From a virus (taxonomy: Duplodnaviria; Caudoviricetes), in the IMG/VR virus record IMGVR_UViG_3300002835_000097, positions 1-64,000 of that record: a stretch of DNA of 64,000 nt. One strand, given 5' to 3'. Position numbers and translations under genes: made by a program. Positions 1 to 50,400 of this stretch are shown piece after piece; positions within the stretch are counted from its first letter, which is position 1, and every line of letters begins with the position of its first letter. The notes beneath the pieces are model-generated. The model saw only the letters and a list, made by a program, of their open reading frames with translations. It was not told the origin of the DNA and did no database searches.

Positions 1-10
1 CCCGATTCGT

Positions 11-39
11 CGTAAAGTCTTATGCGACAAGTAGTTAGA
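11..39. repeat. 82-bp element copy E0 (right 29-bp unit only; truncated by window edge)
   Basis: cgtaaagtcttatgcgacaagtagttaga, preceded by tcgt like the right unit of E1 and E4. Confidence 0.8.
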
Positions 40-52
40 TTATTATGATATT

Positions 53-60
53 GGTGTATA
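53..60 (+). promoter_or_regulatory. candidate phage late promoter motif GGTGTATA
   Basis: Motif starts 45 bp before the ATG at 98; recurs before eight structural genes. Confidence 0.55.
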
Positions 61-97
61 AACCATAGTCTACATTTCCATACCGGAGACGAGTACT

Positions 98-496
98 ATG
101 GCAAAATATGATCCACAAGAATATCAGCGAAATAAAGAGTCTTACAAGATTAGAAACCAAAGATACAAGAGCAAACATAGGTCTATGGTGAACCAAAAAC
201 AATCGGAATATAGATCAAAAACAAAAGATAAAATCAATCAGTATTCTAAAAGTCGTAGAAATAAAATAAGGATTCTATATGATGAATACATGAAAGATAA
301 ATCTTGCTTACATTGTGGATATGATGATTCTCGCTCTCTCGTATGGCATCATACCGACCCATCACAAAAGAAAAATGGAGTTGTTCAGTTGGTTGGTAAA
401 AAACACGGGTGGGATACTATCATGACAGAAATAAACAAATGTATATGCTTATGCCATAATTGTCATAATATATTACATAATCACCAGTCACCATAG
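98..496 (+). CDS. HNH endonuclease (probable free-standing homing type)
   Basis: Basic N-terminus, CLHCG...WHH...KCICLCHNCHNILH zinc/HNH pattern. Confidence 0.85.
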   Translation: MAKYDPQEYQRNKESYKIRNQRYKSKHRSMVNQKQSEYRSKTKDKINQYSKSRRNKIRILYDEYMKDKSCLHCGYDDSRSLVWHHTDPSQKKNGVVQLVGKKHGWDTIMTEINKCICLCHNCHNILHNHQSP

Positions 497-780
497 TCAT
501 CCATTGAAGGATTATAGTATTCATCTTCGGCCCAGCCTACTGACCCCATAGCGCTGTCGTGATCTCCATCCATGCTGTCATCATAGTGATCATCGTAATC
601 ATCATCGTGGTCATCATCCAACTGGCTCTCAATCTCATGATCGGCATCGGCATGATAGGCTGAACTATCCTCGCCATAGAAAGCGTCATGGTAATCGTAG
701 TTATAATCGTCAAAGTGGCTGCTCATAGTATCTTCCTCATAAGAGTTTTCGGGATCGAACAAAGGATCAGGATGACTCAT
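481..780 (-). CDS. highly acidic Asp/His/Tyr-rich hypothetical protein (99 aa)
   Basis: ORF track 481..846; start moved to MSHPDP at 780 because an upstream peptide ORF ends at 785. Confidence 0.7.
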   Translation of the reverse strand: MSHPDPLFDPENSYEEDTMSSHFDDYNYDYHDAFYGEDSSAYHADADHEIESQLDDDHDDDYDDHYDDSMDGDHDSAMGSVGWAEDEYYNPSMDDYGDW

Positions 781-784
781 CTTT

Positions 785-853
785 TTACTCTTTTGCAATG
801 GTACAGAAACAAAGCCCAACATAGGCCACAACGAACAGCATAGCACTAAACAT
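785..853 (-). CDS. 22-aa hydrophobic peptide
   Basis: Translated by hand: MFSAMLFVVAYVGLCFCTIAKE; fills the gap between neighbouring genes. Confidence 0.4.
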   Translation of the reverse strand: MFSAMLFVVAYVGLCFCTIAKE

Positions 854-861
854 AGTTTTTG

Positions 862-1041
862 TCAAGCCTCCACGATTTCGGGATAAATATCTTCGACCAG
901 AATCTCAGCCAGACCCGTAACCTCTGCCCAATCCATCGGGTGGCAGTCGGGTTCGTCAATCGGCTCTACCATAGGCTCGATGATACCCTGCTCTGCAAGG
1001 TAACTCAGTTGGCTGTTTGCTTCGTCTAAGTCGTGAAACAT
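862..1041 (-). CDS. small acidic hypothetical protein (59 aa)
   Basis: ORF track 862..1218 trimmed to MFHDLDE; GAGGG RBS and a promoter lie upstream of 1041. Confidence 0.7.
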   Translation of the reverse strand: MFHDLDEANSQLSYLAEQGIIEPMVEPIDEPDCHPMDWAEVTGLAEILVEDIYPEIVEA

Positions 1042-1077
1042 TTTCGAGCCCTCGTTGGTTGTGATCATCATGCCACG

Positions 1078-1105
1078 ATTATACACATAATATCGGCCAA
1101 TGCAA
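1078..1105 (-). promoter_or_regulatory. sigma70-type promoter
   Basis: TTGCAT-N16-TATAAT on minus strand. Confidence 0.6.
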
Positions 1106-1145
1106 GTGGAGATATGAATCTTTTTCCTTACAATGCTGCAAGTTT

Positions 1146-1227
1146 CGCAACTCGTTGACGGATAAGAGTTTACGTCAAACGCGGGCGGCGGGCCTCGTCT
1201 CAAAGTCTTATGCGGCAAGGCTTTAGG
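1146..1227. repeat. 82-bp element copy E1 (29-24-29)
   Basis: cgcaactcgttgacggataagagtttacg + 24 bp GC-rich + ctcaaagtcttatgcggcaaggctttagg. Confidence 0.85.
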
Positions 1228-1560
1228 TCAACCCCTCCAACCGAAGGGTGAAACTTCCTCGCCCGATGCCATAATGGCAGCATACTGGTCGGCCAACGCT
1301 GCCTTACGCTCAGCCGAACCGGGCTTGCCAACGGGTACAATCATGGTATCCTCTCCCCCATTGTAGCGAGAGTCAACCTTTTCCGCCTTAGCCTTACTAC
1401 CCTTGCGGAGAGCCTTGCGATTGAACTTGTGAATCTTTTCACTGTGAATCGGGCCATACAATCCATCGGCAAGGGACGGCTGATGCCGAGTGGCCATACC
1501 AACAAAGCACATGCGAACCTGACGCTTGGCATCTTCGATAATCTTGAACTTGGTAGCCAT
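1228..1560 (-). CDS. hypothetical basic protein (110 aa)
   Basis: ORF with AGAGG RBS and own promoter; stop codon abuts E1. Confidence 0.75.
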   Translation of the reverse strand: MATKFKIIEDAKRQVRMCFVGMATRHQPSLADGLYGPIHSEKIHKFNRKALRKGSKAKAEKVDSRYNGGEDTMIVPVGKPGSAERKAALADQYAAIMASGEEVSPFGWRG

Positions 1561-1587
1561 TTTCTTTTTCCTCTTGGTGATGAACGT

Positions 1588-1616
1588 ATTTTACAGAAAC
1601 TTTTTTGTCTTGTCAA
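1588..1616 (-). promoter_or_regulatory. sigma70-type promoter
   Basis: TTGACA-N17-TAAAAT on minus strand. Confidence 0.75.
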
Positions 1617-1631
1617 CCCCTCTAGTGGGGG

Positions 1632-1847
1632 TCATGAGACGCCCATCCAAGAGGCTTTTTCCATACAGAAGTTATAGAACATATCGTTCAGCATTTCTTC
1701 GTAGTTGCTTTCCGTGAGTCTACGCCGATCATTCGTCGCCTCGCACTCAGCAAACAGTTTACCGTCTGCCGTATACAGTAGCACCACATTGTACGTTTCG
1801 CTACCCCAAATCTGACGCAAAGCATTTTTGATTTCGTTGGATATCAT
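1632..1847 (-). CDS. hypothetical protein (71 aa)
   Basis: ORF with AGAGG RBS and promoter. Confidence 0.7.
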   Translation of the reverse strand: MISNEIKNALRQIWGSETYNVVLLYTADGKLFAECEATNDRRRLTESNYEEMLNDMFYNFCMEKASWMGVS

Positions 1848-1874
1848 TTTGTTTCCTCTTTCTCTTATATCGTC

Positions 1875-1902
1875 ATTATACAGGGTATTTCTTAGAGATC
1901 AA
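1875..1902 (-). promoter_or_regulatory. sigma70-type promoter
   Basis: TTGATC-N16-TATAAT followed by shared leader GACGATATAAGAG. Confidence 0.65.
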
Positions 1903-1933
1903 GCAAAAAGTTTCCTTAAAAGATCGCAAGGTT

Positions 1934-2015
1934 CGTAAGTCGTTATGCGACAAGACTTTGCGAAAAACCGAGCCGCCACCGCTCGACGTAAAGTCTTGCG
2001 GCTATTGAGTTTACG
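1934..2015. repeat. 82-bp element copy E2 (29-24-29)
   Basis: cgtaagtcgttatgcgacaagactttgcg + 24 bp + cgtaaagtcttgcggctattgagtttacg. Confidence 0.85.
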
Positions 2016-2226
2016 TTGCGTGAATGAATACCTTTTCGCTCGTGGTCTTATTTGTGATCGTCACAATCCAGTTACGACCACTACCATCCTCACGCATGAT
2101 GCCATTCACAAGGCCAGCATAAACCCTACCCTTCGGATCGATCACACTAGTATACTTACCAGCGATCATGGACGAGAAGATAGTATTGAGGCTGTTCTGT
2201 CGATTGGCGTAGGCGGTTCCGAACAT
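2011..2226 (-). CDS. hypothetical protein (71 aa)
   Basis: ORF with AAGGA RBS; stop codon lies inside E2. Confidence 0.7.
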   Translation of the reverse strand: MFGTAYANRQNSLNTIFSSMIAGKYTSVIDPKGRVYAGLVNGIMREDGSGRNWIVTITNKTTSEKVFIHAT

Positions 2227-2256
2227 TTTCTTTTTCCTTGTGGTGATGATGAAGTT

Positions 2257-2284
2257 ATTTTACAGAAACTTTTTTGCTTGTCAA
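2257..2284 (-). promoter_or_regulatory. sigma70-type promoter
   Basis: TTGACA-N16-TAAAAT; spacer nearly identical to the 1588-1616 promoter. Confidence 0.7.
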
Positions 2285-2290
2285 TCCCCT

Positions 2291-2512
2291 CTATCGTAGG
2301 GTAATCAAGCCATTGAAGTGCGAGAAGGTAAGAGTAAGAGTCTTGCCAGGATACTTCTGGTCGATATACGCTTGAGCGGTACTCTTGCGATTATCGGTAG
2401 CGGCAACGTGTTGCACTACCATACCATTCTCATCCGTAACCTTCCAAACTTTCTTTTCCACAATCCTAGGAAGGGTGCCGATGAAGTCGTTGATATGAGT
2501 TGCTTGTTCCAT
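2291..2512 (-). CDS. hypothetical protein (73 aa)
   Basis: ORF in the minus-strand array with own promoter. Confidence 0.7.
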   Translation of the reverse strand: MEQATHINDFIGTLPRIVEKKVWKVTDENGMVVQHVAATDNRKSTAQAYIDQKYPGKTLTLTFSHFNGLITLR

Positions 2513-2538
2513 CTTCTTTCTCTCTTTCTTGTGATTCT

Positions 2539-2567
2539 ATTCTATCAAAACTTTTTCGTATCGTCAA
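2539..2567 (-). promoter_or_regulatory. sigma70-type promoter
   Basis: TTGACG-N17-TAGAAT on minus strand. Confidence 0.7.
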
Positions 2568-2572
2568 CCCCC

Positions 2573-2719
2573 TCAAATGGCGAAGGTGTTCATAAACCTT
2601 TCGGCCTCATATGAACTCTTGAACGTAGCAAGCAGTTGACGGTGATATCCATTCGGATACTTCTTTTCCCGATAAACCTTATACTTACCCTTCACAACGA
2701 TCAGAACCAGATTTTCCAT
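2573..2719 (-). CDS. hypothetical protein (48 aa, below ORF-track cutoff)
   Basis: Translated by hand: MENLVLIVVKGKYKVYREKKYPNGYHRQLLATFKSSYEAERFMNTFAI; purine-rich leader and promoter upstream. Confidence 0.65.
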   Translation of the reverse strand: MENLVLIVVKGKYKVYREKKYPNGYHRQLLATFKSSYEAERFMNTFAI

Positions 2720-2752
2720 TTCTTTCTCTCTTTCCTTTTCTCTTATATCGAC

Positions 2753-2780
2753 ATTATACCATCCATACTTTAGAAGTCAA
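2753..2780 (-). promoter_or_regulatory. sigma70-type promoter
   Basis: TTGACT-N16-TATAAT with extended TGn; leader GTCGATATAAGAG. Confidence 0.7.
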
Positions 2781-2817
2781 CAAAAATCTTTCCTTACAAT
2801 ATCGTAAGATTTCTTAC

Positions 2818-2834
2818 AGCAAATATCATGCCAA
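2818..2834 (-). promoter_or_regulatory. sigma54-like -24/-12 motif
   Basis: TTGGCATGATATTTGCT (GG-N10-GC) on minus strand. Confidence 0.4.
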
Positions 2835-2846
2835 AACTCTGCTTAT

Positions 2847-2928
2847 CTTAAGTTGTTATGCTGTAAGAGTTTGCGTCAAGCCCCTGCGCCCCGCCTCGCC
2901 GTAAAGTGTTATGTAGCAAGGATTTACG
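2847..2928. repeat. 82-bp element copy E3 (29-24-29)
   Basis: cttaagttgttatgctgtaagagtttgcg + 24 bp GC-rich + cgtaaagtgttatgtagcaaggatttacg. Confidence 0.85.
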
Positions 2929-2953
2929 TCGAGTGCATACCTCTAGTGGGGGG

Positions 2954-3274
2954 TTAGCCCACCTTGAACATGAAAACCCTAGAAATCCCACATGACGATA
3001 CCCCCCAACTGGGGCAATCATACAGCCAATCGGGCAACCCCTTACAATGGGGAGGATGATAGCCGTCAACGTGTAGCGTATTATTATCATCCGGCAACCG
3101 CTGTACGATCAGGCCATGAGATTCTAGTTTGCAAATCATTTCAGAAACAGACATTATTTTTTCCTTGGGTTGCATATCATATCCAAGATTATACTTTTTT
3201 CGCAAGTATCTTACCTTATCCTTAGTAGCATTTGCGTCCATTCCAATCCGATTCAATCTTGCAAAACTATTCAT
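2954..3274 (-). CDS. hypothetical protein (106 aa)
   Basis: ORF with AAGGA RBS in the minus-strand array. Confidence 0.65.
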   Translation of the reverse strand: MNSFARLNRIGMDANATKDKVRYLRKKYNLGYDMQPKEKIMSVSEMICKLESHGLIVQRLPDDNNTLHVDGYHPPHCKGLPDWLYDCPSWGVSSCGISRVFMFKVG

Positions 3275-3321
3275 TTTCTTTCCTTGTGAGAGTATTCTAT
3301 ATAATCTCCTTACTGGGGAGA

Positions 3322-3540
3322 TTAGATTCCCTCTCCATCGTCAAGACCGGGAATGTAATCGATATCAGCATGAGAAACATAGTCGGCGTTGAGCCGACCA
3401 ACGTTGCCTTCCTCGTCGCGTACAGTAAGGGTATTATCGTCGTTCACCGACTCGACTCGATAAACCGGATAGTTCTCACAATCAAGCCCATATTCTTCAT
3501 CACTCTCAACCCAATCGCCAACTGAAAAACTGCCGATCAT
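3322..3540 (-). CDS. small acidic protein, possible SH3/KOW-like beta fold
   Basis: FSVGDWV...VYRVESV...TLTVRD pattern; AAGGA RBS. Confidence 0.65.
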   Translation of the reverse strand: MIGSFSVGDWVESDEEYGLDCENYPVYRVESVNDDNTLTVRDEEGNVGRLNADYVSHADIDYIPGLDDGEGI

Positions 3541-3581
3541 TTTCTTTTCCTTTTCTCTTCTGTCTTACTTCTTATATCGAC

Positions 3582-3609
3582 ATTATACAGACATATCTTT
3601 AGGTTGCAA
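3582..3609 (-). promoter_or_regulatory. sigma70-type promoter
   Basis: TTGCAA-N16-TATAAT; leader GTCGATATAAG. Confidence 0.65.
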
Positions 3610-3663
3610 GCGAAATCTTTTATTTTTTTTATTTTTTTTAGAGAATATATTATTCTTTATTCT

Positions 3664-3680
3664 TTGGCATAGCATTTGCT
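3664..3680 (+). promoter_or_regulatory. sigma54-like -24/-12 motif
   Basis: TTGGCATAGCATTTGCT (GG-N10-GC). Confidence 0.4.
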
Positions 3681-3692
3681 AGGGTCATTTAA

Positions 3693-3774
3693 CGTAAGTC
3701 CTTATCCCATAAGAGTTTAGGGCAACTTTTGCGGCCATAACTCGTCGTAAAGTCTTACGCCACAACACTTTAGG
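3693..3774. repeat. 82-bp element copy E4 (29-24-29)
   Basis: cgtaagtccttatcccataagagtttagg + 24 bp + cgtaaagtcttacgccacaacactttagg. Confidence 0.85.
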
Positions 3775-4081
3775 GCAAGAGGGGGTTTTTTCGTTTTATA
3801 TCAAGGGGTTTAGAAAATCGCCATACCTTGCGGGTGGTCCAAAAACAATAAGGACCATCATAACAAATTGGCCAGTTTATTAGCCATTTTCCCCTATAAT
3901 AATCTTTTATAAATCATCTTTGTGCCGATACAAGTATCAATAATGAGCCCAGTAGCATCGATTCTAAAAAAAATGGCCGGGTCATCATATCAATTGGCCA
4001 GTTTCCACCAACTAACAATCAACCCTGCACCATATTTTATTCATCTACAGATTACTTACTATATATTAGCCGAATTCCCCC

Positions 4082-4393
4082 CTAGTATCTATAAACATTA
4101 TATCCATAGAAATTAGGAGCAGTCGGAACAGGACTATAAAGGAGATAAGCTGGATAAATTACTGTCTGAACAGGTACTACCTGAGTATTTACTACTGGCT
4201 GATAAACTATTGTTGGAACATAGGTAACAGTATTCTGTTGAACATAAGACCATGATACAACTGGTTGAAACTGCCGAACAGGAGCATAAACTGGCTGAGT
4301 ATGAATATTTCTTGCTCTTGTCCATTCACAAGCATTACTACTATTTCCAATACAACAATATAAACCACAAACTAATAGCATAAAAATTTTCAT
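4082..4393 (-). CDS. putative exported Pro/Val/Tyr-rich protein
   Basis: Signal-peptide-like N-terminus MKIFMLLVCGLYCCIGNSSNA then low-complexity PVY/QPVV tract; AGGAG RBS. Confidence 0.65.
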   Translation of the reverse strand: MKIFMLLVCGLYCCIGNSSNACEWTRARNIHTQPVYAPVRQFQPVVSWSYVQQNTVTYVPTIVYQPVVNTQVVPVQTVIYPAYLLYSPVPTAPNFYGYNVYRY

Positions 4394-4453
4394 TATTAAT
4401 CTCCTAAAGGTATTTTTGACTTCATGTCACCTTATTATAACGGCCAACCCCCA

Positions 4454-4500
4454 TAAAAACAACAACGGCCACAACTAATTTCTTAGCTATGGCCGCCGTT
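4454..4500 (-). terminator. intrinsic terminator
   Basis: On minus strand an 18-bp stem (4 G-U pairs) with GAAA loop, then GTTTTTA; downstream of gene 4527-4772. Confidence 0.75.
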
Positions 4501-4526
4501 ATAATCAATTTTTAATTAAAATAACT

Positions 4527-4772
4527 TTAAGAAAGCACACTCTGCTCAACCTGAATATTCGTTGATGCTGTAGTAGCAGGCTTTGTCTTTCGTGGACGTC
4601 CTCTGCTCTTCTTTAGTGATAACTTTCTTCGCTGTCTACGAACCATGGCAGTACTAATGTTTTGTCCAGTTATTTTGCTTAGTGATGCTGCTAAACTCTC
4701 ATCACATAATACATTATGATTATTTTGAATATAGTCCAATTCTGAGGGTGCCCACTTTTTATAATTAGCCAT
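4527..4772 (-). CDS. small DNA-binding protein (HTH/Myb-like plus AT-hook)
   Basis: KKW..SELDYI...LAASL...VRRQRRKL followed by RGRPRK. Confidence 0.65.
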   Translation of the reverse strand: MANYKKWAPSELDYIQNNHNVLCDESLAASLSKITGQNISTAMVRRQRRKLSLKKSRGRPRKTKPATTASTNIQVEQSVLS

Positions 4773-4861
4773 AAAATACTCCTATACTTATTAATTGTTG
4801 ACAATCATCCATCAAAACATATTATAATAACAGTTGACAAGTTTAGCGCAAGGATAAACAT

Positions 4862-5032
4862 ATGACATTTTCAAATTTAAATTCGCCCAATTTTCCAACC
4901 ATTACTGATAGCGTACTATCTATAAAAGCTTCTGGATCAGTAAATGATGAAGTTATTAATGATTTATTATTAGATAACGGAAAGAGCATAGCAGAATTAC
5001 TAAATGACCAAAAAACAACAGAACAAAGATAA
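4862..5032 (+). CDS. hypothetical protein (56 aa, below ORF-track cutoff)
   Basis: Translated by hand MTFSNLNSPNF...KTTEQR; AAGGA RBS; overlaps next gene start. Confidence 0.5.
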   Translation: MTFSNLNSPNFPTITDSVLSIKASGSVNDEVINDLLLDNGKSIAELLNDQKTTEQR

Positions 5033-5660
5033 ATTGCCCAATGGCGTAGAAACAGAAGAATTTTTATTAGTTTTGGATAATATTACTAAAAGATTAGCTA
5101 ATAAATTCAGATTCGCCTATCATAGCATAGAAGATATGAAGCAACAAGCTGCTATTTTTGCTTTGGAAGGATTAAAAAATTATGACAAGAAAAGGCCCCT
5201 GGAAAACTTTCTTTGGACCCATGTTCGTAATAGACTATTTAATTACAAACGTAATAACTATCAAAGGCCCGACAAACCTTGTTTAACTTGTCCATTTTTT
5301 GATAAAGGTTGTAAAGTGAGCATTAATCAGTGTGAACAATATAAAAATAAAAATGATTGTGAACTATATGCAGCATGGGCAAAAAGAAATGAGGCCAAAA
5401 AGAATATTATTCAACCAGGTTATATTGAGAATAACACCTCATTAGGCCCATCTCTTCCTGCACCACTATTAGAAAACCAAGAGTTAATTAAATTTTTAGA
5501 TTCTAACATACAAAGTGATTATAGAGAAAGTTATTTAAAACTAAAACATGGAACTAAAATTAATAAGACCGAGCTTAAAAAACTCAAAGCTCATATTCAA
5601 AAAATAATGGAGGAAAACAATTGGAAAATAGAAACATTCCAAGAAAACGAGGACAACTAA
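5004..5660 (+). CDS. phage RNA polymerase sigma-like factor
   Basis: Sigma70 region-2 pattern EDMKQQAAIFALEGLKNYD..RPLENFLWTHVRNRLFNYKR; Cys-rich insert follows. Confidence 0.7.
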   Translation: MTKKQQNKDKLPNGVETEEFLLVLDNITKRLANKFRFAYHSIEDMKQQAAIFALEGLKNYDKKRPLENFLWTHVRNRLFNYKRNNYQRPDKPCLTCPFFDKGCKVSINQCEQYKNKNDCELYAAWAKRNEAKKNIIQPGYIENNTSLGPSLPAPLLENQELIKFLDSNIQSDYRESYLKLKHGTKINKTELKKLKAHIQKIMEENNWKIETFQENEDN

Positions 5661-6436
5661 GTTTAGAAGAAGAAAAATACATTCGTGATAACTATAGTTC
5701 AATACCATTACAGCAAATTGCTGATGCTCTAAACAGAAACTTAGCTCCAGTAGAAAGATACGTTAATGAGAATCAATTATCTGTGGTTAATAATTCACAA
5801 GATGATCAGATACTAAAACAAAAATTACACAGTAAAACCTTTTGGTTAGAAATACTAAGACAATTTGATAAAGAGAGCGGTGAACTAGAATATTTTGAAA
5901 GTACCTGGGTTAATTTAGTCAAACAATTTCGTGAAGATGTTTTACCCGCCGAAGAACTTCAGATTAAACAATTTATAACTATTGATATTCTGATTAATCG
6001 AAGTATGAAAGAACGAAAGCGTCATATTGCTGAAACTGAAAAATTACAAAAGCAAGTTGACAAAGAATATGAAAAAAGTGAAGATCAAAGAGACATACCG
6101 AAATTGGCTAATTTAGAAACTCAATTAAGTTTTGCTCGTAACAGTATTGCAAACTATACTAACGAATATACTAAACTTTTAAATGAACAACAAAAGATTA
6201 GCAAAGACCTTAAAGCTACTCGTGAACAGCGTATCAAAAGAATAGAAGATGGTAAAAGCAGTTGGACAGGATTAATACGCATGTTGGAAGACGAAGAAAC
6301 ACGAGAAAAAGAAGGACGTCAAATGGAGATTATCAGTTTAGCTACCGAAAAATACAAACAGCAATTAGCTGGCTATCATTCTTTTCAGGATAATACTGTA
6401 GATAAACCTCTTTTAACACCAGATACTGTGGAGTAA
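5621..6436 (+). CDS. HTH plus coiled-coil protein, possible terminase small subunit
   Basis: N-terminal LQQIADALNRNLAPVERY HTH-like segment, long coiled coil, position upstream of TerL; function is inferred. Confidence 0.45.
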   Translation: MENRNIPRKRGQLSLEEEKYIRDNYSSIPLQQIADALNRNLAPVERYVNENQLSVVNNSQDDQILKQKLHSKTFWLEILRQFDKESGELEYFESTWVNLVKQFREDVLPAEELQIKQFITIDILINRSMKERKRHIAETEKLQKQVDKEYEKSEDQRDIPKLANLETQLSFARNSIANYTNEYTKLLNEQQKISKDLKATREQRIKRIEDGKSSWTGLIRMLEDEETREKEGRQMEIISLATEKYKQQLAGYHSFQDNTVDKPLLTPDTVE

Positions 6437-6438
6437 AT

Positions 6439-7434
6439 ATGAAAACAGCAATTGTTACGGGAATAACAGGTCAAGATGGTAGTTATTTAGCAGAAAATTT
6501 ATTAGACAAAGATTACAAAGTTATTGGATTATACAGAAGATCCAGTACCAATACCTTCAATAGAATCAAACATATAGATAATCCTAATTTTATTTTGCAA
6601 GAATATGACATTACTGATCCTAGCGGATGCATATCTTTAATATCATATATCCAACCTGATGAATTTTATAATTTGGCGGCCCAAAGTCATGTGGCCACAA
6701 GTTTCAAACAACCAACTACAACATTTGAAATTAATGCTATTGGTGTTATTAATGTTTTGGAGGCTATTCGACTATTTTCAAAACATACTAAGTTTTATCA
6801 GGCTAGTACTAGCGAAATGTTTGGGCGAAATTACTCAGTTGATAGTGATGGTAACAAATATCAAAATGAAGAAACCTCCTTATTGCCACAAAGTCCTTAT
6901 GCTGTAGCTAAGTTAGCTAGTCATCGAATGGTTCAAATATACAGAGAGGCTTATAACTTATATTGTTGTAGTGGAATACTATTTAATCATGAAAGTCCAC
7001 GACGCGGCGAAAACTTTGTAACGCGTAAGATTACCAGATATATTGGTCGATTAGTTAATAACAAACTACAGCCAGATGAGAAATTGCGATTAGGAAACAT
7101 AAAAGCAGTTAGAGACTGGGGACATGCTAAAGACTATGTTGAAGCTATGAGACTAATGCTAAATAACAATATAGCCGCAAATGATTTTGTTATTAGCACC
7201 GGACAATGCTATAGTGTTGAGCAGTTTTTGCAAATAGCTTTTGGTCTAATAAATAAAGATTGGAATAATTATGTTGTTATAGATCCTGAATTCTACAGAC
7301 CAGCCGAAGTAGATTATCTGAGAGGAAACTCTGATAAAGCTAAAAAGTTACTAGGTTGGGAGCCTAAAATACCATTCGAAGATTTAGTCAAAGATATGGT
7401 AAATCAAGATATTGAGATAACAAAGAATGATTAG
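6439..7434 (+). CDS. gmd: GDP-mannose 4,6-dehydratase
   Basis: TGITGQDGSYLAE, YNLAAQSHV, QASTSEMFG, SPYAVAK, NHESPRRGENFVTRKI, RDWGHAKDYV. Confidence 0.97.
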   Translation: MKTAIVTGITGQDGSYLAENLLDKDYKVIGLYRRSSTNTFNRIKHIDNPNFILQEYDITDPSGCISLISYIQPDEFYNLAAQSHVATSFKQPTTTFEINAIGVINVLEAIRLFSKHTKFYQASTSEMFGRNYSVDSDGNKYQNEETSLLPQSPYAVAKLASHRMVQIYREAYNLYCCSGILFNHESPRRGENFVTRKITRYIGRLVNNKLQPDEKLRLGNIKAVRDWGHAKDYVEAMRLMLNNNIAANDFVISTGQCYSVEQFLQIAFGLINKDWNNYVVIDPEFYRPAEVDYLRGNSDKAKKLLGWEPKIPFEDLVKDMVNQDIEITKND

Positions 7435-7699
7435 AAACTTTGATGATCCTGAGTATAAAAAATGGAGAAATAAAATTTATGCAAGGGATAATCATACTTG
7501 TCAATGGCCAGGATGTTCTAATAAGAAAAAATTGAATGCTCACCATATTCGTCGTTGGGCTGATTTTCCAGGACTACGGTTCGCTGTTGATAATGGAATA
7601 ACATTGTGTAAAGATCATCATAAAGCAATTACTGGTGTAGAAACTTATTATGAGGCTGTTTTTTATAACATAGTAAAACAGAAAAATAATGACAAATAA
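7427..7699 (+). CDS. small HNH endonuclease, terminase-adjacent
   Basis: WRNKIYARDNHTCQWPGC...HHI...NGITLCKDHH. Confidence 0.85.
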   Translation: MIRNFDDPEYKKWRNKIYARDNHTCQWPGCSNKKKLNAHHIRRWADFPGLRFAVDNGITLCKDHHKAITGVETYYEAVFYNIVKQKNNDK

Positions 7700-8180
7700 T
7701 AATACTTATAATAATTTTACCATTATAATAGACACGCGCGAACAACAGCCGTGGAATTTTGAGAGTTATACAACGGCACATAAGAAACTTGATACTGGAG
7801 ATTATAGTATCGAAGGACTGGAAAGCATTCTTACCATCGAAAGAAAAAAGAGCGCTAGTGAATTTGCTACAAATATAGTGGAAAGTCGATTCAAAGATGT
7901 TATTATGCGCTTGAGTCAATTTAAATATTCATTTTTATTATTAGAATTTGACTTAGAGGACCTACTAATATATCCGATAGGCAGTACTGTTCCTAAAAAA
8001 ATGTGGGATAAAGTTAAAATTACTCCAGCTTTTTTAGTTAAAAATATACTTGAATTACAATTAAATCATAATATCAAAGTAATATTTTGTGGTAATGCAA
8101 CTAGTGCTGAAAAAATAGCTGAATTTATATTTAAAAAAATACACTATATCGAAATGGTAAAAAAAACAGATGCCCAATAA
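7689..8180 (+). CDS. ERCC4 (XPF/Mus81-like) nuclease
   Basis: IIIDTREQ...LDTGDYS...IERK signature. Confidence 0.88.
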   Translation: MTNNNTYNNFTIIIDTREQQPWNFESYTTAHKKLDTGDYSIEGLESILTIERKKSASEFATNIVESRFKDVIMRLSQFKYSFLLLEFDLEDLLIYPIGSTVPKKMWDKVKITPAFLVKNILELQLNHNIKVIFCGNATSAEKIAEFIFKKIHYIEMVKKTDAQ

Positions 8181-41493: not shown

Positions 41494-44400
41494 ATGGCAA
41501 CTTTTAATCTAACAGCACAGTTGAATCTTAAAGGTCCAACAAACGTTAAGCAAATAGCTGCTCAAATTAAAAAAGATCTTGGCGCTCTTAATGCAAATGT
41601 ACAATTTAAACTTGATCCGGCAGCATCAAAAAATGTTGCAGCATTATCGTCTTCTTTAAAAGTTTTGAATGCTAATTTTGCCTCAACTGTCAAATCAGCC
41701 AATGCTGCCACATCAGCAATAAAGGCTTTTGGTAATAGCGTAAATTCTGTTAAAATTAACAATGTCCCTCAACAAATTAATCAAACTTCATCAGCAATTG
41801 CTAAATTAAATAAAGTATCCTCATCAACATCTGGAGGATTGCAAAATGCCGCAACAGAGATGCAGGAATTCGGCAAGCAAGCTGGTTTAGCAGTTAGAAG
41901 ATTCGTTGCATTTAGTGCTGTTACAAGTGTTATATATGGAGTAACAAATAGTATAAATAATGGTATACAGGCTTTTATTGATTATGATAAAGAGCTTGTA
42001 AAATTACAACAGGTTACTGGAGAATCTGCTGCCGGATTATCCAAACTACAATCTCAAATTAGTAATTTAGCTGTAGAATTTGGTGTTAGTTCTAAAGAGC
42101 TAACTCAAGTAGCATCAACATTAGCTCAGGCTGGTTTAAGTGCCAGAGAAACTGAGAAAGCTTTAAAAGCCTTAGCACTTAGTAGTTTAGCTCCGTCATT
42201 TGATAATATGAATGAGACTGTGGAAGGTAGTATTGCTATAATGAGACAGTTTGGTATTAGTGCTGCTGATTTGGAGGCATCATTAGGTGCGGTTAATACC
42301 GTGGCAGCAAGGTTCGCAGTAGAATCTAGTGACATCATTACCGCCGTGCAAAGAACAGGTAGCGTATTCGCTACTGCGAGTAAAGGGGTAAGCGAAGGAA
42401 AAGACGCTTTAAATGAATTTATTTCGGTATTTACCAGTGTTAGAGCAACTACCCGTGAAAGCGCTGAAACTATTGCTACTGGATTACGAACAATATTTAC
42501 TCGTATCCAAAGAGGAACAACGATAGACGCCCTAAAAGAGTTTGGTGTTAACTTAACAGATGCTGAGGGTAAGTTCGTTGGAGCGTATAAGGCTGTCGAA
42601 TTGTTAAGTAAAGGATTAGGTAAAATAGACCCTAGAAGTTTGGACTTTTCAAGAATAGTTGAAGAACTTGGTGGATTTAGACAAATTGGTAAAGTTATTC
42701 CATTAATTCAACAATTTAGTGTGGCTCAACAGGCGTTAAAAGTTGCTCAACAAGGACAAGGTTCGCTAGCTAAAGATGCAGCAACAGCACAATTAAGTTT
42801 AGCTAATCAAATAAGTAAAGTTCGTGAAGAATTTTTCTCACTATTTCGTGAAATAGGTCAATCCAAAGGATTTCAAAGTTTAATCAGAGGAGCGTTGTCT
42901 CTAACTAGTGGTTTGATAAAAGTAGCAGATGCTGTTAAAGGAATTCTACCAGCATTAGCAGTACTTGCAGCATTTAAGGGATTTAAAGCATTAACAGAAT
43001 TTACTACAGGATTTGCCACAGGAGTTAAAAGAGGACCAGATGGTAAAGCTAATGGCGGAGTTATAAGAAAATTCGCACGAGGTGGTGTTGTTCCTGGTAC
43101 TGGTAGTGGAGATACTGTACCAGCAATGTTAGAGCCAGGAGAATTTGTTATACGTAAAAAAGCTGTTGAAACTATTGGTACTGATAGTCTTCATAGTATG
43201 AATAAGTATGGAAGTGGTGGAAGTATACGAGCAGGAAAATCAAATAGAAGAAAAAGATTTGGGGGTGGAGGTAAACTATATGACGATATTGATGTTCAAG
43301 AATATTCTAAGTCTAACAAGCAGTATGCTGGTAGGCTCAAAGCTTATGATGCAGATAGTATAAATTTATTGGTTGATCCAACACAAACACTAGTTAATAA
43401 ACGTTTTAAAAAACTAACTGGCGATTTAATTTATCCTAGTGAAAAAGGTAAATTTAAAGTCACATCCAGACTTGAAGGAATAGATGCTTTTGAAATTAAA
43501 GCATCAAAAAAAGAAAGAGAAGAGTATGCTAGTCAAGGAGGAAAAGGTCCGGCATATGCTAGTAATAGAGAGAAAGGCAAAAGAGCCAAAGATATAACTA
43601 TAGATTTTATAAGTGGACTTGGTAAAGAAAAATTAGCTAAAATTTTTATCGACGCTAATAAAGTAGATTACTATGGCAGACCAATGGCGGAAATTGGTGC
43701 TCTTAATAAAAAATTAGTAGGAGAGAATGTTGCAAAATATAGTGGAACTAAAAAAGGTCAAGACATTATTCAAGCAGATAAACTAGCAAATAGACTAGAG
43801 ATAATGAAGAAAAATTCAGGATTCGGCAATACTAATAAGTCATCATGGGATAGGGTTATTAAAGATGATTATATGTTTAACTATATGCCAGCAGGATCTA
43901 AGGATAGGTTTAACAGTTCAGGGAATATAATACAAGACGACTCCCGGCCATTAAAAACTATCTCTGATATTGGTTTTATTAAGAAAATGACAGAGACTAA
44001 AGGATTGGCTAAGTTCATGGTTGGAGGAAAAGTAGAAAGAAAAATTGGAGTAGTTGATACGGACGTACTAAGAGATGAGGCTAATGCGGCGATAGTTAGG
44101 CCAGCAATGGAAAAGCTTGGAATAACTGATGTTAGTGACTATACAACAAAACTTGGAGAATTGGCAGGCAATGCTAGAAAAAGTGGATCGCTATCTAGGT
44201 TTAGAGCTATTGCTGGAGCTGCTGGAAGTGGAAAAAGCAGTTTAGCAACCGGAAAGGGAGCTAATGATGATGCTACTTTAAGAAAAACAATTCGCTCTCA
44301 AATATTAACGCCTGAAGATATAGACAAAGTTAATGAAGTTATAGTATTAACATCGACAGCTAGTCAGACTAAATTAGATGCTTATTTAAAAGATGTTGAT

Positions 44401-47400
44401 AGAGCATATGTATTAAGCTCTAATAGCAGAGAGGAACAAGATAGAGTTAGGTCAAATAGAGAGAGCAGAGACATTACAGGAGAAGGATTGTATGGTCGTA
44501 AACCAGGAACCACAAGAGCAGCTGATATTGATTTTGGTCTGGAAGAAACCATATTACGAGATGAACTTGGCAAAAGAGCCACAGTATTAGGAAGAAAAAA
44601 AGATAGTTTCGGTTTAAGACGTAAAAGAGAAAGCGAACTACCAGAAATAGTTCAGGCTGGTGGATTTTATATGGGTGGTTTTGCCCCACCAACAAGAGGC
44701 CATAGAGGAGCTTTAGATACTTTATTAGAAAACATGTTAGCAAAGAACCCAAACTCTTCTTTAGAAGATATTCTTGTTAGTGTTGCTCCTGACCTTCCAA
44801 TGATTGTTGATAAAGAAGGCATAGACCACGCTGCACGATATGGTATTTTCCCATCAGACATAAGAACCTTATTTAGCCAAATGAATTTTGGAAATGCTAT
44901 GATTAGCACTCAAAGCCAGACGGGTGGTGGTTTACCAAAATTTATGGAAGTTACTGATGCTGGAGATAGAAGAAAATTCGCCAGATTAAAAGGAGCCATG
45001 GCAATAACTTCTGGTAAAGACGATAAAACATTGGGCAAATACCAAAGAGCAGGAATAGACGTTACAGATATTCCTAGAATAGAAGATATTAGTGCTACTG
45101 CAGTTAGAGACGCATTATTTAATGGTGACGATAAAACACTTACTAGTTTAATGAATCCTGATATAGCATCAATATTAATGGGCAATAGAGCACAATTACG
45201 TAATCGTAGCACTATGGTTCCTATGCTCATCGAAGAAATACAAAAGTTTGTTGATCAAGATAAAGTACGATCCAATGCTGAGGTTACAGAAATATTATCA
45301 AATGCTCCTGGTGGTCCATATGGTAATGTTAGTGCTGATCTAAAGAAAAATTATCCAGAAATAGCTGAGCAAGTTAAGCAGATAAGAGACAAAAGAGATA
45401 GAGTATCTAAAGGAGCATTCGGCTATAGAGCATTTAATATAATAAGCGCCCTATCTGCCAAATATCCAGAAACTTATGGGTTAGACCCATCAAGAAAATC
45501 CGCCGTATCTGCGCAACCATCAGACATAACCAGAGAGGCCATAGCAGCACAAATTTCAGAACAGATGGCTGGTGAGTTTGGTGGAGTTCCAACAGCTATG
45601 CCTTCTGGACTAGAAGAGGCAATACTAAAAAATGTAGAAAAAGCCACCCAGGTCAAAAAGTCTTCTGGAATATTACCAACACAAGGATCAGAGATTCTAA
45701 AAAGATTTGGAACTCAAAGATTACCAAATGATCCAAGTTTTGGCCCATTCTCAGGAAAAACAGTAAGAGATACAGCCGAAGGAGGAAAATTAAAATACTG
45801 GAATTCTGCTTTTAGACCAGAAACAAAAGAAGATAAGCTCGCTTACTATATTGCAACAAGAGACTATCTAATAGACAAATTTAATGAATCACAAGGAATT
45901 CAAAAGGCTACAGCTCTAGAAGATACAACTAATGCTGTGTTATCTTCCAAACAATTAGGATTAGTTGGATTAAATCCGCTAGGATATACTGGATTATTGG
46001 GTCCAGAGACTTGGAATCTTGGAGTCGATCCGTCTGGCCAAGAAAGATCAATAGACGCTTCAATAGTACAAAGAGGACTACCAACAGAATTCCAAAACGT
46101 TATTGATTATCTTAGTGGACAAACAGCAGAAATAGTACAAGGAGCATCAAAGCTTCTTGGTATTACTCCTAAAGAATTAACTAAAAAACAAAGAGAAACA
46201 TTAGGACAAGGAAATATTGAGGGTGCTTTACTAGAACAAATTTTTGGATCAGCAGATGCCACAATATTAGACGATGCATTAAGAACAAGACCAATTGACT
46301 TTCCAATGGGTATCGGACCTAAAGCAGCAAAAATATTTGGTATCGATCCTGATATTCCAACAGAAGTTAAAAGAACAATAGATAGTAATAGTAGAGGTAA
46401 AGCTGTTGAAGAATTTCAAAAATATTTTAGACAACAATACGGCATTCCTGATCCAGAAAAAGTAACAGCTTTTGCTGACGGCGGAGAAGTATATACTCCA
46501 CAACAACTAGTCTCATTAGCCAAATACAGAACAGGACCATTTCCTGGTGGTGGAACTGATAGCGAATTTATAAATAGATATTTAGAAGATAATGATTCTT
46601 TCATGGAATATCTTAAAACTTTCCATGCTGATCCTCCAAAGGCGTATGATGCCACAAAGAATGCTGCAAAAGATTTATTGGAAATGTTTACTAGCCAAGA
46701 ATCAATGAGTGGCTCAAAGCGTTCTGGTAAATTATATTCCACTGTTGCTGGTGGTAAATTAAAAACCATTTTAACTCAAATTAATAATCCTTTAAACTCT
46801 AATAAAGATATTTCTGATGCTATTGGTAAAAACTTTAATTTAAATGGCTCATTATTATCAACTAGTGAATCCCCGGATACAGCTAGTGTATTTCAGCCAG
46901 AAAATGGTTCTAGTGCAATGTTGAGTATCATTAGAAATAAAAATATTCCATCTATTGATGTTGATAAGGCAATATTTGATACCTCCACAGAAGAAGATAT
47001 TATAAAAGCATTATCAAAATATATAGACCCTGTCTCTGGAAAAAGCGGAGCAGATTTTCTAAGCAGAAGTCGATCAGCAACACGAATAGAAAAAGAATTC
47101 ATTCTCCCACAAACTTCAAAATTTAGAATAGATGATATTGATAGAATATTTAGTAAAGATCAAGAAGATAAATTATTAGGTGGAAATATTCGTCATATAG
47201 AAGGAATGAAAGTTCAGCAGTTTAAAGATGGAGGAATGGCATTTGGTAAAGAAAATGAATTTGAAAAAATAAGACAAAAAATATTAAATCAATATCCAGA
47301 TATTAATTTTAGAATTTCCAGACGAAAGAATGGTTTTGGATACAATATATTAGGCGGACTAAAACAAGAAAGTAGTAACATTGGTAATTATGCAGAATTT

Positions 47401-50400
47401 AAGCAAGCTGGTAATCTTTCTAAAATACAAGAAGTTGCCGATAATATGGCATCCTCTCTGCTATATGAATATGGTCCAAATATAGATCCGTCTCTTCTAA
47501 AGAAGATGCAGAATAAAAGAAAATTTGCAAATGGTGGGTCTGCGCAGGATACTGTACCAGCATTATTAACTCCTGGTGAATTTGTTGTTAATAAAAAAGC
47601 AGCAGAAAAAATAGGATATGGCAAGTTAGAAAAATTAAATAAAGCAGATAAAATACAAGGATACAATAAAGGAGGAATTGTAGGAGGAGTACAAAGATTT
47701 GCTTTAGGTGGAGGTGTAGATGGCTTTCTTTCTGGATTACAAAGCATAGCAAGTAATTTAGGAAGAACACAAAATATTACTAATAATCGCCCAAATTCAA
47801 TAGATACTAGTACAATAGCTGTAGACCCATCTATTCTGCAAGATACAAAAGCATTTGTGGACACTCTTTATGATGCCGGAGACGGCATGAAGTATTTAAA
47901 TCGTTTATTAAATGAAAATAAACAATTATCTATACAAGCAGTATTAGAAGCTGGTAATAAAGATCTAGAAAGATTAAAAATTAGTGGAGCATCTATTGAT
48001 AAAATTATAGAAGCTGAAAAGGCATTGTCTAATATTAGAAATAAAGGACTTATTGATGTTACTAATCGTCAATTTTTAGAGTCTGGATTTAAAGAAAGTT
48101 CAGTTGGTAAAAAATTAGGATCAGGAGCTACGCAACAAAAAATATTATCTTTAGCAGAAAAAGAAGAGCGACGATTAATAGATAAAAGAAAAAAGGCTAT
48201 AGAAGCTGATATAGTATCATCATCCAAACAACCAATATCTCCATCAGACTTAGCTGATCAGGTCGCCCAAGCTATATCTTCTGAATTAAATGATATTAAA
48301 ACGCAAGCATTTTCTAGAGCTACAGCAGCGGCTACAGGAACAAAAACTTCTACTGGCATAAAAGGGAATATAACAGAAAGTGAATTAAAAAATCTAAATA
48401 TAACTGGAAATGATATTCAAAAATATATTTCTGATTCTATGAGAGATAGAAAAACTCTCAGACAAATGGATCAGCAGTTAATAGCTATGAGAATGGAAGA
48501 GTATAAGAATGCTGGAACTGTTAGAGGTATTAGCGTTGCTTCTGCAGAGGAAGCTAAAAAATTAGCACAGGAAGAAGTTAGCAAACGAAGAGAAGCTATA
48601 AATGATCTGGCAAAAATGAGAGGAGAACGAGGTGTTGGAGCTGCTGGATTAATGGATACTAGAAATAGTCCTATTAATCGAGCATTTAGAGAAAGATACT
48701 TTACTGGAGATCTAGGAAAAAGTATGCAGAGAGGATTGGGCGACATTGGATTAGCGGCAGGATTAGTTGCTGGACAAGGAGACAACATAGCATCAGCATT
48801 ATTTGATACTAAAACCGATAAAGGCAAAATACAAGCGGCAGATACAGGCGCAAGAATCGATAAAGCAGCAACAACACTGTCTGTTGGTCTAACAACATCA
48901 GCACAATTAGCTGCTATAAATCCTATGTTAGGAGCTGCTGCTGCTATAGGCACAGCACTGTATGCTGGCGCTGATGCTGTATATGATTTCTCAGGCACTG
49001 CCAAAAAAGCAGCTCAAGAAATGGCAAGAGCTTTATTAAATGATAAATTATCTGCTGCTAGTGATAATCTATCAAATGCTTTGGAAAAATTAAGCAGAGA
49101 TGCTAATAACGTTGAACTTAGAGCAAAAACAGCATCAACCATTAAAAGCTTAACAGATACTGCCCTGGAAAGCACAGCAGATACAGGAATAACAGGAAAG
49201 AATAAAGCAGAGACGGAGCGTAATTGGTCAGATTTTGGCAGAGGAATATTGTTGGCCATTGGAGAAATTGGAGTTGGTATGAATCCATTCTACCAAGACA
49301 TGGACCCTGTAACGCTTGCAAAATCCAAACAAGGCTCTTATGGCATGGAAGAAGCAAGAGTTGATGCTCAAAAAGAAGCAGAAAATTTTCAAAAAATAGC
49401 TAATGCTGGATATACCGATCTAGAAAGGCTATATGCAAAAGGATTCACTAATGATCAAATTATGGATCCTACTAATGAAGCTGGAAATATAGTTAGAGAA
49501 TCTATAAAAGGCATGATTCTAGCTGATTCTGAAAAACGAGCTTTATATATGGCTGCCGGACCACAAGGTAAAGAAGCTATTGCTGGTACAGCAGCGCAAC
49601 AAGCATTTTTAGCTAATGATGAATTAGCAAAAGCTTCTCAAGAAGCTGCAAAATTAGCAAGAGCTATGGAAATTGCTGATAAAGCAGGACGAAGATTAGC
49701 AGCAAGTTTTGATAAAATAGCAGATATAGTAAATGAATCTGTTAATAGAATATCATTTGAGTCTGATGCTAGAGTAGAAGCGGCAAACCAATATGCATCA
49801 TCATTACGTGGAGAGTCCAGAGGTTCTGGTCCAAAACTAAGAGAAAGAAATATTTTAGAAAATCCCAATGCATATTCTGAAGCAGAATTTACTGCAGCAC
49901 TACAAAGTGCCACAGCAGGATTAAGTGACGGACTTAGAAAACAACTGATTGGCGGTGCTCAATTACAACAAAACATACCAAAAAATATAACAAAAAGCAT
50001 AGCAACTGTTTTAGACAAGAGCGCCGGCTCAGGAGTAGATGAACTTAAAAAAGCAGCAGTTGATACTGCTAAAAATGAAATAGAAAATAATGCTAATTTA
50101 TCTAGACAACAAAAAGATGAATTAAAACAAATAGCTACGGCCAGGATAGAAACTATAGCTAAAAAAGCTAAAGATAACAATGCCGATAATACTACGCAAG
50201 TATCAGAATTTAGAAAAGAACTAGAAGAAGGTACTAGTGTTTTAGGTGATTTTGGTAAAAAATTATTAGATTCTATAAAAGGTCTATCATCATTCAAAGA
50301 AGGAGCATTAGATAAATTTGCTAAGGGCTTGAATGAAGCTAGCAAAGCAGCTAAAGAATCTCAAAACTATTTTAGAAGATCAAGAGAAATCTCTAACGAA

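Follow-up and report, generated by a model that had tools for sequence, protein, structure and literature searches.

A repeated 82-bp double-dyad element at the boundaries of short gene units in an early region of large uncultured phages

The left end of the virus contig IMGVR_UViG_3300002835_000097 (IMG/VR; Duplodnaviria, Caudoviricetes) carries an array of small genes punctuated by an 82-bp element, which is the subject of this analysis. The DNA that we analyzed, hereafter the window, comprises bases 1–64000 of this 88,057-bp contig, which is 59% complete by CheckV. Five copies of the element were found where an earlier note on this DNA had placed them, at ..11–39, 1146–1227, 1934–2015, 2847–2928, and 3693–3774. 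The 29-bp pattern of its half-sites, with up to three mismatches allowed, had 10 matches in the window, all within these five elements, compared to 0.02 expected from shuffled sequence (0/100 shuffles reached 10). A pattern scan of the whole contig, which the same note had proposed as a check, found elements only in bases 1–3774. It returned 13 half-sites at positions up to 3774, all in elements except one at 741, and 13 further matches beyond 3774, all of them scattered singles.

All five copies read in the sense of the minus strand. The first in gene sense, E4 (3693–3774), is preceded by ~300 bp of AT-rich non-coding DNA without a minigene. E3 (2847–2928) begins 25 nt past the stop codon of open reading frame (ORF) 2954–3274, the stop of ORF 2011–2226 falls inside E2 (1934–2015), and the stop codon of ORF 1228–1560 adjoins E1 (1146–1227; weight-matrix score 102.9, orientation margin 32.9). 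The stops at 1228, 2011, and 2954 that had been recorded near the elements are therefore real, but they are owned by these three minus-strand ORFs. The last copy, E0 (1–39), is truncated by the contig start and retains gene-sense site 1 (11–39) and the first 10 nt of the spacer. Because the contig begins inside an element, the array evidently runs on past the contig and was cut by assembly.

Between the elements, every small gene lies on the minus strand except for an HNH endonuclease gene at 98–496 (+). The ORF list holds nine small orphan early genes on the minus strand, at 3322–3540, 2954–3274, 2573–2719, 2291–2512, 2011–2226, 1632–1847, 1228–1560, 862–1071, and 481–822, and none of the nine had a Pfam or PHROG match. 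We counted 2–3 genes per interval, where 2–4 had been reported. In gene sense, each boundary follows the order stop codon, 82-bp element, promoter, gene. The promoter scan placed sigma70-like promoters on the minus strand after E4 (3582–3609, TTGCAA-16-TATAAT, for ORF 3322–3540), after E3 (2753–2780, TTGACT-16-TATAAT, TG-extended, for ORF 2573–2719), and after E2 (1875–1902, TTGATC-16-TATAAT, for ORF 1632–1847). A promoter-like site after E1 (1078–1105, minus strand, TTGCAT-16-TATAAT), read by eye, precedes ORF 862–1071; its −35 matches at only 3/6 positions, and hence it is not in the promoter scan list. The gaps between element and −35 in the window are 40, 31, 66, and 83 nt. The scan also listed four internal, element-free promoters on the same strand, at 2567–2539, 2284–2257, 1616–1588, and 865–837. 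The array forms a G+C-rich island (40–47%), compared to about 26–43%, mostly 30–38%, in the rest of the window.

To place the element in a wider context, we searched for relatives with a 14-base element anchor, which led to at least 111 IMG/VR stretches, and located elements in the fetched loci with a weight matrix built from the copies. Elements were present in at least 32 IMG/VR records, of which at least 29 had at least 2 copies and at least 16 had at least 5. The spacing between copies had a median of 855 bp (range, 367–2,668 bp), and each of the 111 copies with a confident orientation follows the direction of its own array. In a complete 175-kb relative, the copies are confined to 160.4–172.6 kb, and in a complete 244-kb relative, which has terminal repeats, to 197.5–215.7 kb, indicating a single locus that is not necessarily at the genome end. 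In the latter (G006), the array region at 198–216 kb is also G+C-rich, at 0.43–0.46 compared to a mean of 0.355. Arrays often terminate contigs, as repeats do. Within the minigene array of the 175-kb relative, we also observed a tRNA-Glu gene (anticodon TTC; 3776–3849 (+) of fetched locus L011), and no tRNA gene was found in window positions 1–8000.

The region had no DNA-level match among 50,697 phage records by megablast and blastn, and the closest isolates among the listed matches were Bacillus phages such as Stahl, at ~24% terminase identity. A search of 596 Gb with a 16-base anchor gave 60 single matches in bacterial or archaeal genome stretches, with a full element in 0/60, and on this basis we ruled out a bacterial or prophage origin of the element. 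The element-bearing phages are a clade of large uncultured phages. A strict inner-arm pattern proved unsuitable as a genome screen, since it misses divergent lineages: it gave no match in the complete records G002 and G006, both of which bear arrays.

Numbered in gene sense from its first base, the element has the consensus CcTAAAgCcTTg..gcatAAGACTTTACG.CgAg.c.gggCGcccgggtTTGaCgTAAAcTCTTat....cAAggAcTTAcG and consists of two 29-bp pseudo-palindromes separated by a GC-rich 24-bp spacer. Each pseudo-palindrome has the skeleton CGTAA-N4-CTT-N7-AAG-N4-TTACG, an 11-7-11 geometry, and the two site centers are 53 bp apart, or five helical turns. This 29-24-29 layout, described before from the window copies, held across the relatives: in the window and 111 fetched loci, 140 of the 142 site pairs lying 30–120 bp apart were spaced at exactly 53 bp, and 2 were at other offsets. 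The 84 element copies could be aligned without gaps. AA/TT dinucleotides are invariant at positions 4–5, 25–26, 57–58, and 72–73, that is, in all four arms, and nearly invariant at 10–11, 19–20, 63–64, and 78–79. The 7-bp cores and the mid-spacer vary, with low information in the core columns, and the cores of the window copies all differ from each other. Core variability had been claimed earlier together with spacer variability, but the 24-bp spacer is not free; it carries a conserved CGAG (31–34) and TTTGA (49–53). A TTGA often stands just before position 1, mirroring the TTTGA at 49–53, and the repeated unit is therefore ~34 bp. The TGA of this unit often doubles as the stop codon of the upstream gene.

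Per-lineage consensus sequences from 36 further loci retained the CGTAA/CTT/AAG/TTACG skeleton and the 53-bp phase. Lineages differ in three or four middle arm bases, often jointly in the two inner arms, and in several lineages the whole element is fully two-fold symmetric. A separate small inverted repeat, CCTTRC-N6-GYAAGG, is located immediately after three of the four full window elements (at 1123–1145, 1911–1933, and 2789–2811) and after many copies in relatives, ahead of the A/T-rich block of the promoter. We also considered the element itself as a sigma70 promoter, with TTGAC at −3 to 1 and at 50–54, and rejected this because no acceptable −10 lies 16–18 nt further on.

The position of the element between stop and promoter recurs across copies. 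In 41/103 cases, the element start is −20 to +2 nt away from the sense-strand stop, and the next sense ATG lies 53–99 nt past the element end in 44/96. A strong sigma70-like promoter (at least 9.5 of 12) is found within 150 nt downstream in 83/104 instances; in 64 of those 83, the −35 begins 17–41 nt after the element, with distances clustering at 17–19 nt (16 cases), 26–32 nt (43), and 38–41 nt (5).

To determine whether the dyads are conserved as nucleic acid structure or as sequence, we compared base pairing and folding with shuffled controls. Because the shuffles leave the relatedness between copies in place, the covariation figures are indicative only. When the palindromes were treated as two hairpins, 69.6% of cells were paired compared to 70.0% in column shuffles, with no excess of double changes, and when the element was treated as one dyad or long hairpin, the values were 66.2% and 66.1%. 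RNAalifold predicted no consensus pair across the 84 copies, and Rfam had no match at E ≤ 1 in window positions 1–5000. The four full window copies folded with ordinary energies, E2 excepted. Across copies, the right half folded like shuffled sequence (mean z −0.30), the left half slightly better than shuffles and alike on both strands (mean z −1.21 and −1.16), and the spacer of 237 unique copies had a mean z of 0.01. Folding, RNAalifold, and the pairing counts together ruled out the two palindromes as hairpins. A REPIN-like long hairpin spanning the whole element was likewise rejected, as the cores are non-complementary (19–37 of 84 copies paired at three middle core positions). The inner arms do pair across the spacer in 82.8% of cells, with 20 double-change cells compared to 12.2 in shuffles (1/500 reached this value). 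We considered a stem here, but the per-lineage consensus led us to read this instead as dyad symmetry at the level of lineages.

The arms are therefore conserved as sequence and not as base pairs, which points to a symmetric protein on double-stranded DNA. On our reading of these alignments, the four arms would be recognized as duplex DNA by a two-fold symmetric protein. The earlier note had offered phased protein-binding sites as one of two interpretations, and it is this one that appears to fit best, given the 53-bp spacing, the dyad arms, the variable cores, and the lack of an RNA signal in these tests.

The region also resembles a known class of phage cassettes. In the T4-like phages, PeSLs consist of a promoter and one stem-loop at a variable position and act as homologous exchange points, according to two reports (PMC2839356; PMC4122927). 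As described there, PeSLs likewise recur between genes in hyperplastic regions rich in small orphan early genes, and they follow the same order of upstream stop, AT-rich stretch, strong sigma70-like promoter, Shine-Dalgarno sequence, and start codon. At PeSLs, homologous exchange, with mini-circles, gives rise to modular mosaicism, and homologous exchange probably also underlies the mosaicism here. The element-free junctions of the window, with a stop, a short C-run/G-run hairpin, and TTGACA, are very like PeSLs. At these junctions, the upstream stop TGA is often beside or within the −35 TTGAC(A) of the next promoter (1588–1634, 2257–2293, and 2539–2575). One of them has a CCCC...GGGG hairpin at 1616–1631 (−) ahead of the −35, an arrangement that closely resembles the published PeSL layout. 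By contrast, PeSLs as described have no conserved 82-bp module, paired 29-bp dyads, or fixed spacing, and the conserved part here is located ahead of the promoter, without a general stem-loop signal.

The element could be a composite terminator-promoter of the PeSL type that acts mainly as RNA; its hairpins just past the stop would terminate or attenuate transcription, or stabilize the mRNA 3′ end, ahead of the next early promoter. The general layout shared with PeSLs (PMC2839356) is in line with this, as are the element start at or near an upstream stop (41/103) with a promoter after it, and the similarity of upstream genes, which runs through the left half of the element and ends before position 30 in only one of 57 pairs. 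Within the left half, a hairpin that we call H1 (8–17 with 26–35) shows compensatory changes and is well formed in 31/84 copies. Positions 32 and 34 can pair with 51 and 49, mostly as G-U pairs that favor the sense strand (169 vs. 97 and 180 vs. 106 of 237 copies), a T-run is conserved at 49–51, and E2 scores as a terminator. However, E2 is the sole window copy with a canonical terminator-like hairpin and T-run (1988–1974), so that only 1 of 4 full window copies appears in the terminator scan. Across copies, hairpins that reached −5 kcal/mol or better were present in 30/104, and only 6/104 had one with at least 4 T in the next 8 nt. With a spacer z of 0.01, this makes for a weak canonical intrinsic terminator, and we rejected the spacer in that role. 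Moreover, the left half is barely above shuffles and equal on both strands, RNAalifold found nothing, and termination would leave unexplained both the four-arm dyad at the sequence level and an unstructured right half that is as conserved as the left. We therefore regard a terminator role as unlikely, although it is the strongest of the competing explanations.

The other interpretation in the earlier note was an integron-like or Xer-like system that shuffles cassettes at the elements. The 11-7-11 geometry does fit tyrosine-recombinase core sites, with their two ~11-bp inverted arms and 6–8 bp center, the small-orphan-gene arrays are mosaic between relatives, and Xer proteins might be supplied by the host. 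The array also recalls those of integrons, in which an imperfect-palindrome element follows each short gene group and the small genes are of unassigned function. Still, attC sites are conserved in folded structure rather than sequence, need IntI, and delimit cassettes without promoters; here, the arms are conserved in sequence, and every unit has its own promoter. No tyrosine (PF00589) or serine (PF00239) recombinase, and hence no IntI, was found in any of three phage records (G000, the window contig, 59% complete; G001 and G002, both 100% complete by CheckV), while a PF00589 control was positive in 14/14 genomes. For Y1/HUH proteins (PF01797), the three records gave only one 14.5-bit match, below cut-off. 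The earlier observation that no recombinase is visible in the window was thus extended to three records, two of them complete. Furthermore, tyrosine-recombinase sites that recombine share an identical central region, and cores that differ within one array would block classical strand exchange between copies.

Gene order gave a similar picture. We grouped 444 sense ORFs from 31 arrays into families, of which 78 had at least 2 members. Broad gene order is syntenic, with modules recombined; for example, the family order F4 F2 | F6 F0 in one phage becomes F6 F2 | F4 F0 in another. After leaving out 7 near-duplicate arrays of the 31, the next gene belonged to the same family in 51/205 comparisons across element junctions vs. 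112/317 across element-free junctions, pair counts that are non-independent and serve as description only. In 123 comparisons, the same gene had an element after it in one array and not in the other. The suggestion that gene content changes exactly at the elements is therefore not supported, as order changes at element-free junctions as well, almost as frequently. In the 57 element pairs that match in the upstream gene end and differ downstream, similarity ended at positions 30–42 in 14, 42–54 in 4, 54–65 in 6, 65–72 in 15, 72–83 in 2, 83–110 in 9, 110–140 in 1, and 140–170 in 5. Because the single remaining pair is the only one to end before position 30, the left half travels with the upstream gene. 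Mosaic breakpoints thus fall in or near elements and promoters, and some exchange points lie at the border between promoter and 5′ untranslated region, outside the element.

Judged from these alignments, this is the pattern that would be expected of homologous exchange between repeated regulatory sequences, as with PeSLs, and not of precise site-specific cassette capture. Without a recombinase in the records, with differing cores, no covariation, units that own promoters, and shuffling where elements are absent, cassette shuffling of the Xer or integron type is not supported. We consider it very unlikely that the elements are recombination sites for cassette excision or insertion, be they attC-like, Xer/dif-like, or sites for an unidentified recombinase.

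A further alternative is that the element is a selfish REPIN- or MITE-like mobile repeat without function for the phage. REP, BIME, RIP, and REPIN sequences are chromosomal, dispersed, RAYT-linked, and hairpin-forming, and some bind IHF or gyrase. Many copies, dyad symmetry, and paired palindromes would suit a mobile repeat, and like REP, BIME, and RIP sequences, the element consists of imperfect-palindrome pairs with a fixed linker that lie outside genes, after stops. Unlike REP, BIME, and REPIN sequences, it is phage-borne and confined to one locus, has no Y1 gene above cut-off in the three records, and shows no hairpin covariation in its palindromes. A selfish repeat would also not account for copies that always lie between stop and promoter, that are co-oriented in 111/111 cases, and that keep a strict 53-bp geometry across divergent lineages, nor for site cores that are non-complementary (19–37/84 paired at the three middle positions) and the lack of a Y1 transposase among the proteins searched. 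This makes it the most improbable of the explanations that we weighed.

If a protein does bind the element, it may come from the host. An architectural or topological protein, such as an IHF-like bender or DNA gyrase as at BIME/RIP sequences, could make the elements supercoil barriers between strong tandem promoters. The anatomy of the element agrees with this as well as with a phage-encoded protein, and two palindromes around a fixed linker after genes are also seen in BIME/RIP. The three phage records yielded no HU/IHF-family gene (PF00216), and a protein of this kind would therefore be host-derived. In addition, YAA-N4-TTR describes each arm, and a TAAA tract stands 8 nt upstream of it; this resembles the IHF consensus and is a lead only. 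On the other side, the WAT of that consensus is not conserved, with low information at positions 68–70, and none of the 60 bacterial or archaeal genome stretches bearing the 16-base anchor held a full element. A host protein of this kind seems rather improbable, more so than termination.

A candidate binder is encoded by the phage itself. The gene at 4527–4772 (−), upstream of the array, encodes an 81-aa protein, here called F8, with three helices resembling a helix-turn-helix (HTH) and an RGRPRK AT-hook tail. In 10 arrays, F8 is encoded upstream of the first element and shares its strand. F8 homologues were found in 5/5 element-bearing records searched, divergent lineages included. Relatives of F8 are encoded in 242 IMG/VR stretches. 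Among the best 80 of these 242, 58 loci had at least 3 kb of downstream DNA; elements were found downstream of F8 in 41/58 and upstream in 0/58. An AlphaFold2 model of F8 shows a three-helix bundle followed by the basic RGRPRK tail, with a mean pLDDT of 72.7. A sequence profile of F8 had no match at E ≤ 1 among solved structures. We attempted to match the F8 recognition helix to the arm type of each lineage and abandoned this, as the third helix is nearly invariant across lineages and no co-variation was visible. The link between F8 and the element is one of position and predicted fold type, and is suggestive.

Taken together, the symmetry and fixed phase of the element, its place between a stop and a promoter, and its restriction to the early-orphan-gene locus point to a protein-bound boundary module. 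Our preferred explanation, which we hold tentatively and at less than an even chance, is that the 82-bp element is a pair of protein-binding sites on double-stranded DNA that mark the boundaries of short early transcription units. A function as an operator or insulator pair at these boundaries is the most likely one. The analysis establishes the anatomy, conservation, position, and orientation of the element, from which protein binding and its regulatory effect are inferences. Under this explanation, the early units would be transcribed by the host RNA polymerase within a hypervariable region of small orphan genes, and a two-fold symmetric protein, probably as two dimers on one helix face, would bind each boundary. 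The bound protein could then act on all units jointly: it might repress early transcription or stand in its way as a roadblock, or it might shield strong tandem promoters from each other. The binder could be F8, the phage's own HTH and AT-hook protein at the array head, or could come from the host. The repeated elements and promoters would, as a side effect, supply homology through which ordinary recombination reshuffles the minigenes, as PeSL cassettes do in T4-like phages.

Several observations weigh against this explanation. Strong promoters were found at 91/129 element junctions vs. 83/162 element-free junctions; because promoters of equal quality occur without it, the element is not a promoter part and, as far as promoter sequences tell, is dispensable for promoter activity. 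The sites also lie 17–130 nt upstream of the −35 and not over the promoter, which would be unusual for a simple repressor. In hairpin H1, whose loop is TAAGACTT, we counted 52 double-change cells compared to 30.7 in shuffles (0/500 reached this value), with compensatory changes such as GCCTTGCCGCA/TGCGGCGAGGC vs. GCCTTGATGTA/TACATCGAGGC, and at least 8 of its 10 pairs are formed in 31/84 copies. This part of the left half may therefore have an RNA or single-strand role, and our reading is that it also carries a gene-linked hairpin in some lineages. As for F8, 17/58 loci had no element in the available flank; in one complete genome among these 17, the array lies ~11 kb downstream of F8, outside the fetched flank. 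Foldseek searches of the F8 model against the PDB returned nothing significant (best E 0.98), and the weak top matches include several HTH DNA-binding domains.

For the roadblock or shut-off role, stoperators may offer the best functional analogy. In the Cluster A mycobacteriophages such as L5, stoperators are present in many intergenic copies oriented with transcription and are proposed to halt elongation (PMC9283540). The same study describes many site copies in short intergenic spaces whose orientation is the direction of transcription, much like the 111/111 co-oriented copies here. It also presents stoperators as single asymmetric 13-mers, bound by an immunity repressor monomer and found genome-wide in temperate phages (PMC9283540). 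The elements here are instead paired 29-bp dyads in one locus, and no integrase was found in the three records searched. In a bolder form of our explanation, F8 would form a symmetric oligomer that clamps ~82 bp at each boundary, thereby shutting off or insulating ~20 early anti-host gene units simultaneously. Such a previously undescribed boundary control system would be the counterpart of stoperators in lytic phages, built on sites of a new architecture. We regard this form as unlikely. In a variant that is less likely still, cassette exchange would be directed by this nucleoprotein complex, with no known recombinase involved.

The gene content around the elements recalls another early region. 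The host-takeover module of phage SPO1 groups small early genes together and has many strong host-type promoters, and the arrays described here share both features. We know of no comparable repeated double-dyad element in that module. The large terminase of the window is 24% identical to those of Bacillus phages such as Stahl, and SPO1 is absent among the matches listed.

Several neighboring genes are of interest in their own right. The HNH endonuclease gene at 98–496 (+) (PHROG 3106, E 1.5e−18) is AT-rich, lies 59 nt from E0, and runs antisense within the G+C-rich array. The same antisense ORF pair occurs at this place in two related loci (L058 and L086), and the 175-kb relative is without it; the gene looks like the insertion of a free-standing homing endonuclease. 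Minigene 481–822 (−) encodes a product without a family match that contains runs of D, E, Y, and H, an extremely acidic composition reminiscent of DNA-mimic anti-restriction proteins. Beyond the array, a sigma-70 region-2-like protein (5004–5660 (+)) is followed by a 271-aa protein (5621–6436 (+)). The N-terminus of the latter resembles, by eye, the helix-turn-helix of F8, with a charged coiled-coil-like stretch after it and only a weak match to PHROG 323; this protein may be a small terminase or a regulator. Elsewhere, the window encodes the large terminase, portal, capsid, and tail proteins in addition to the sigma-like protein, including an unusually long single ORF of 4,950 aa (41494–56346 (+)) with a tape-measure (PhageMin_Tail) domain at residues 188–380.

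Early regions of small orphan genes are where phages keep fast-evolving anti-host and anti-defense genes, and detailed knowledge of their regulation and reshuffling is limited to the PeSLs of T4-like phages and a few model phages. The element described here is a sharply defined, searchable cis-module, with invariant AA/TT positions and a fixed 53-bp phase, and it comes with a concrete candidate binder in F8. It flags early orphan-gene regions in hundreds of uncultured phage contigs, linked F8 being encoded in 242 contigs. If binding and shut-off or insulation hold true, the element would add a new architecture to the few genome-wide transcription-control sites known in phages and would provide a handle for finding arrays of early anti-defense genes in metagenomes.

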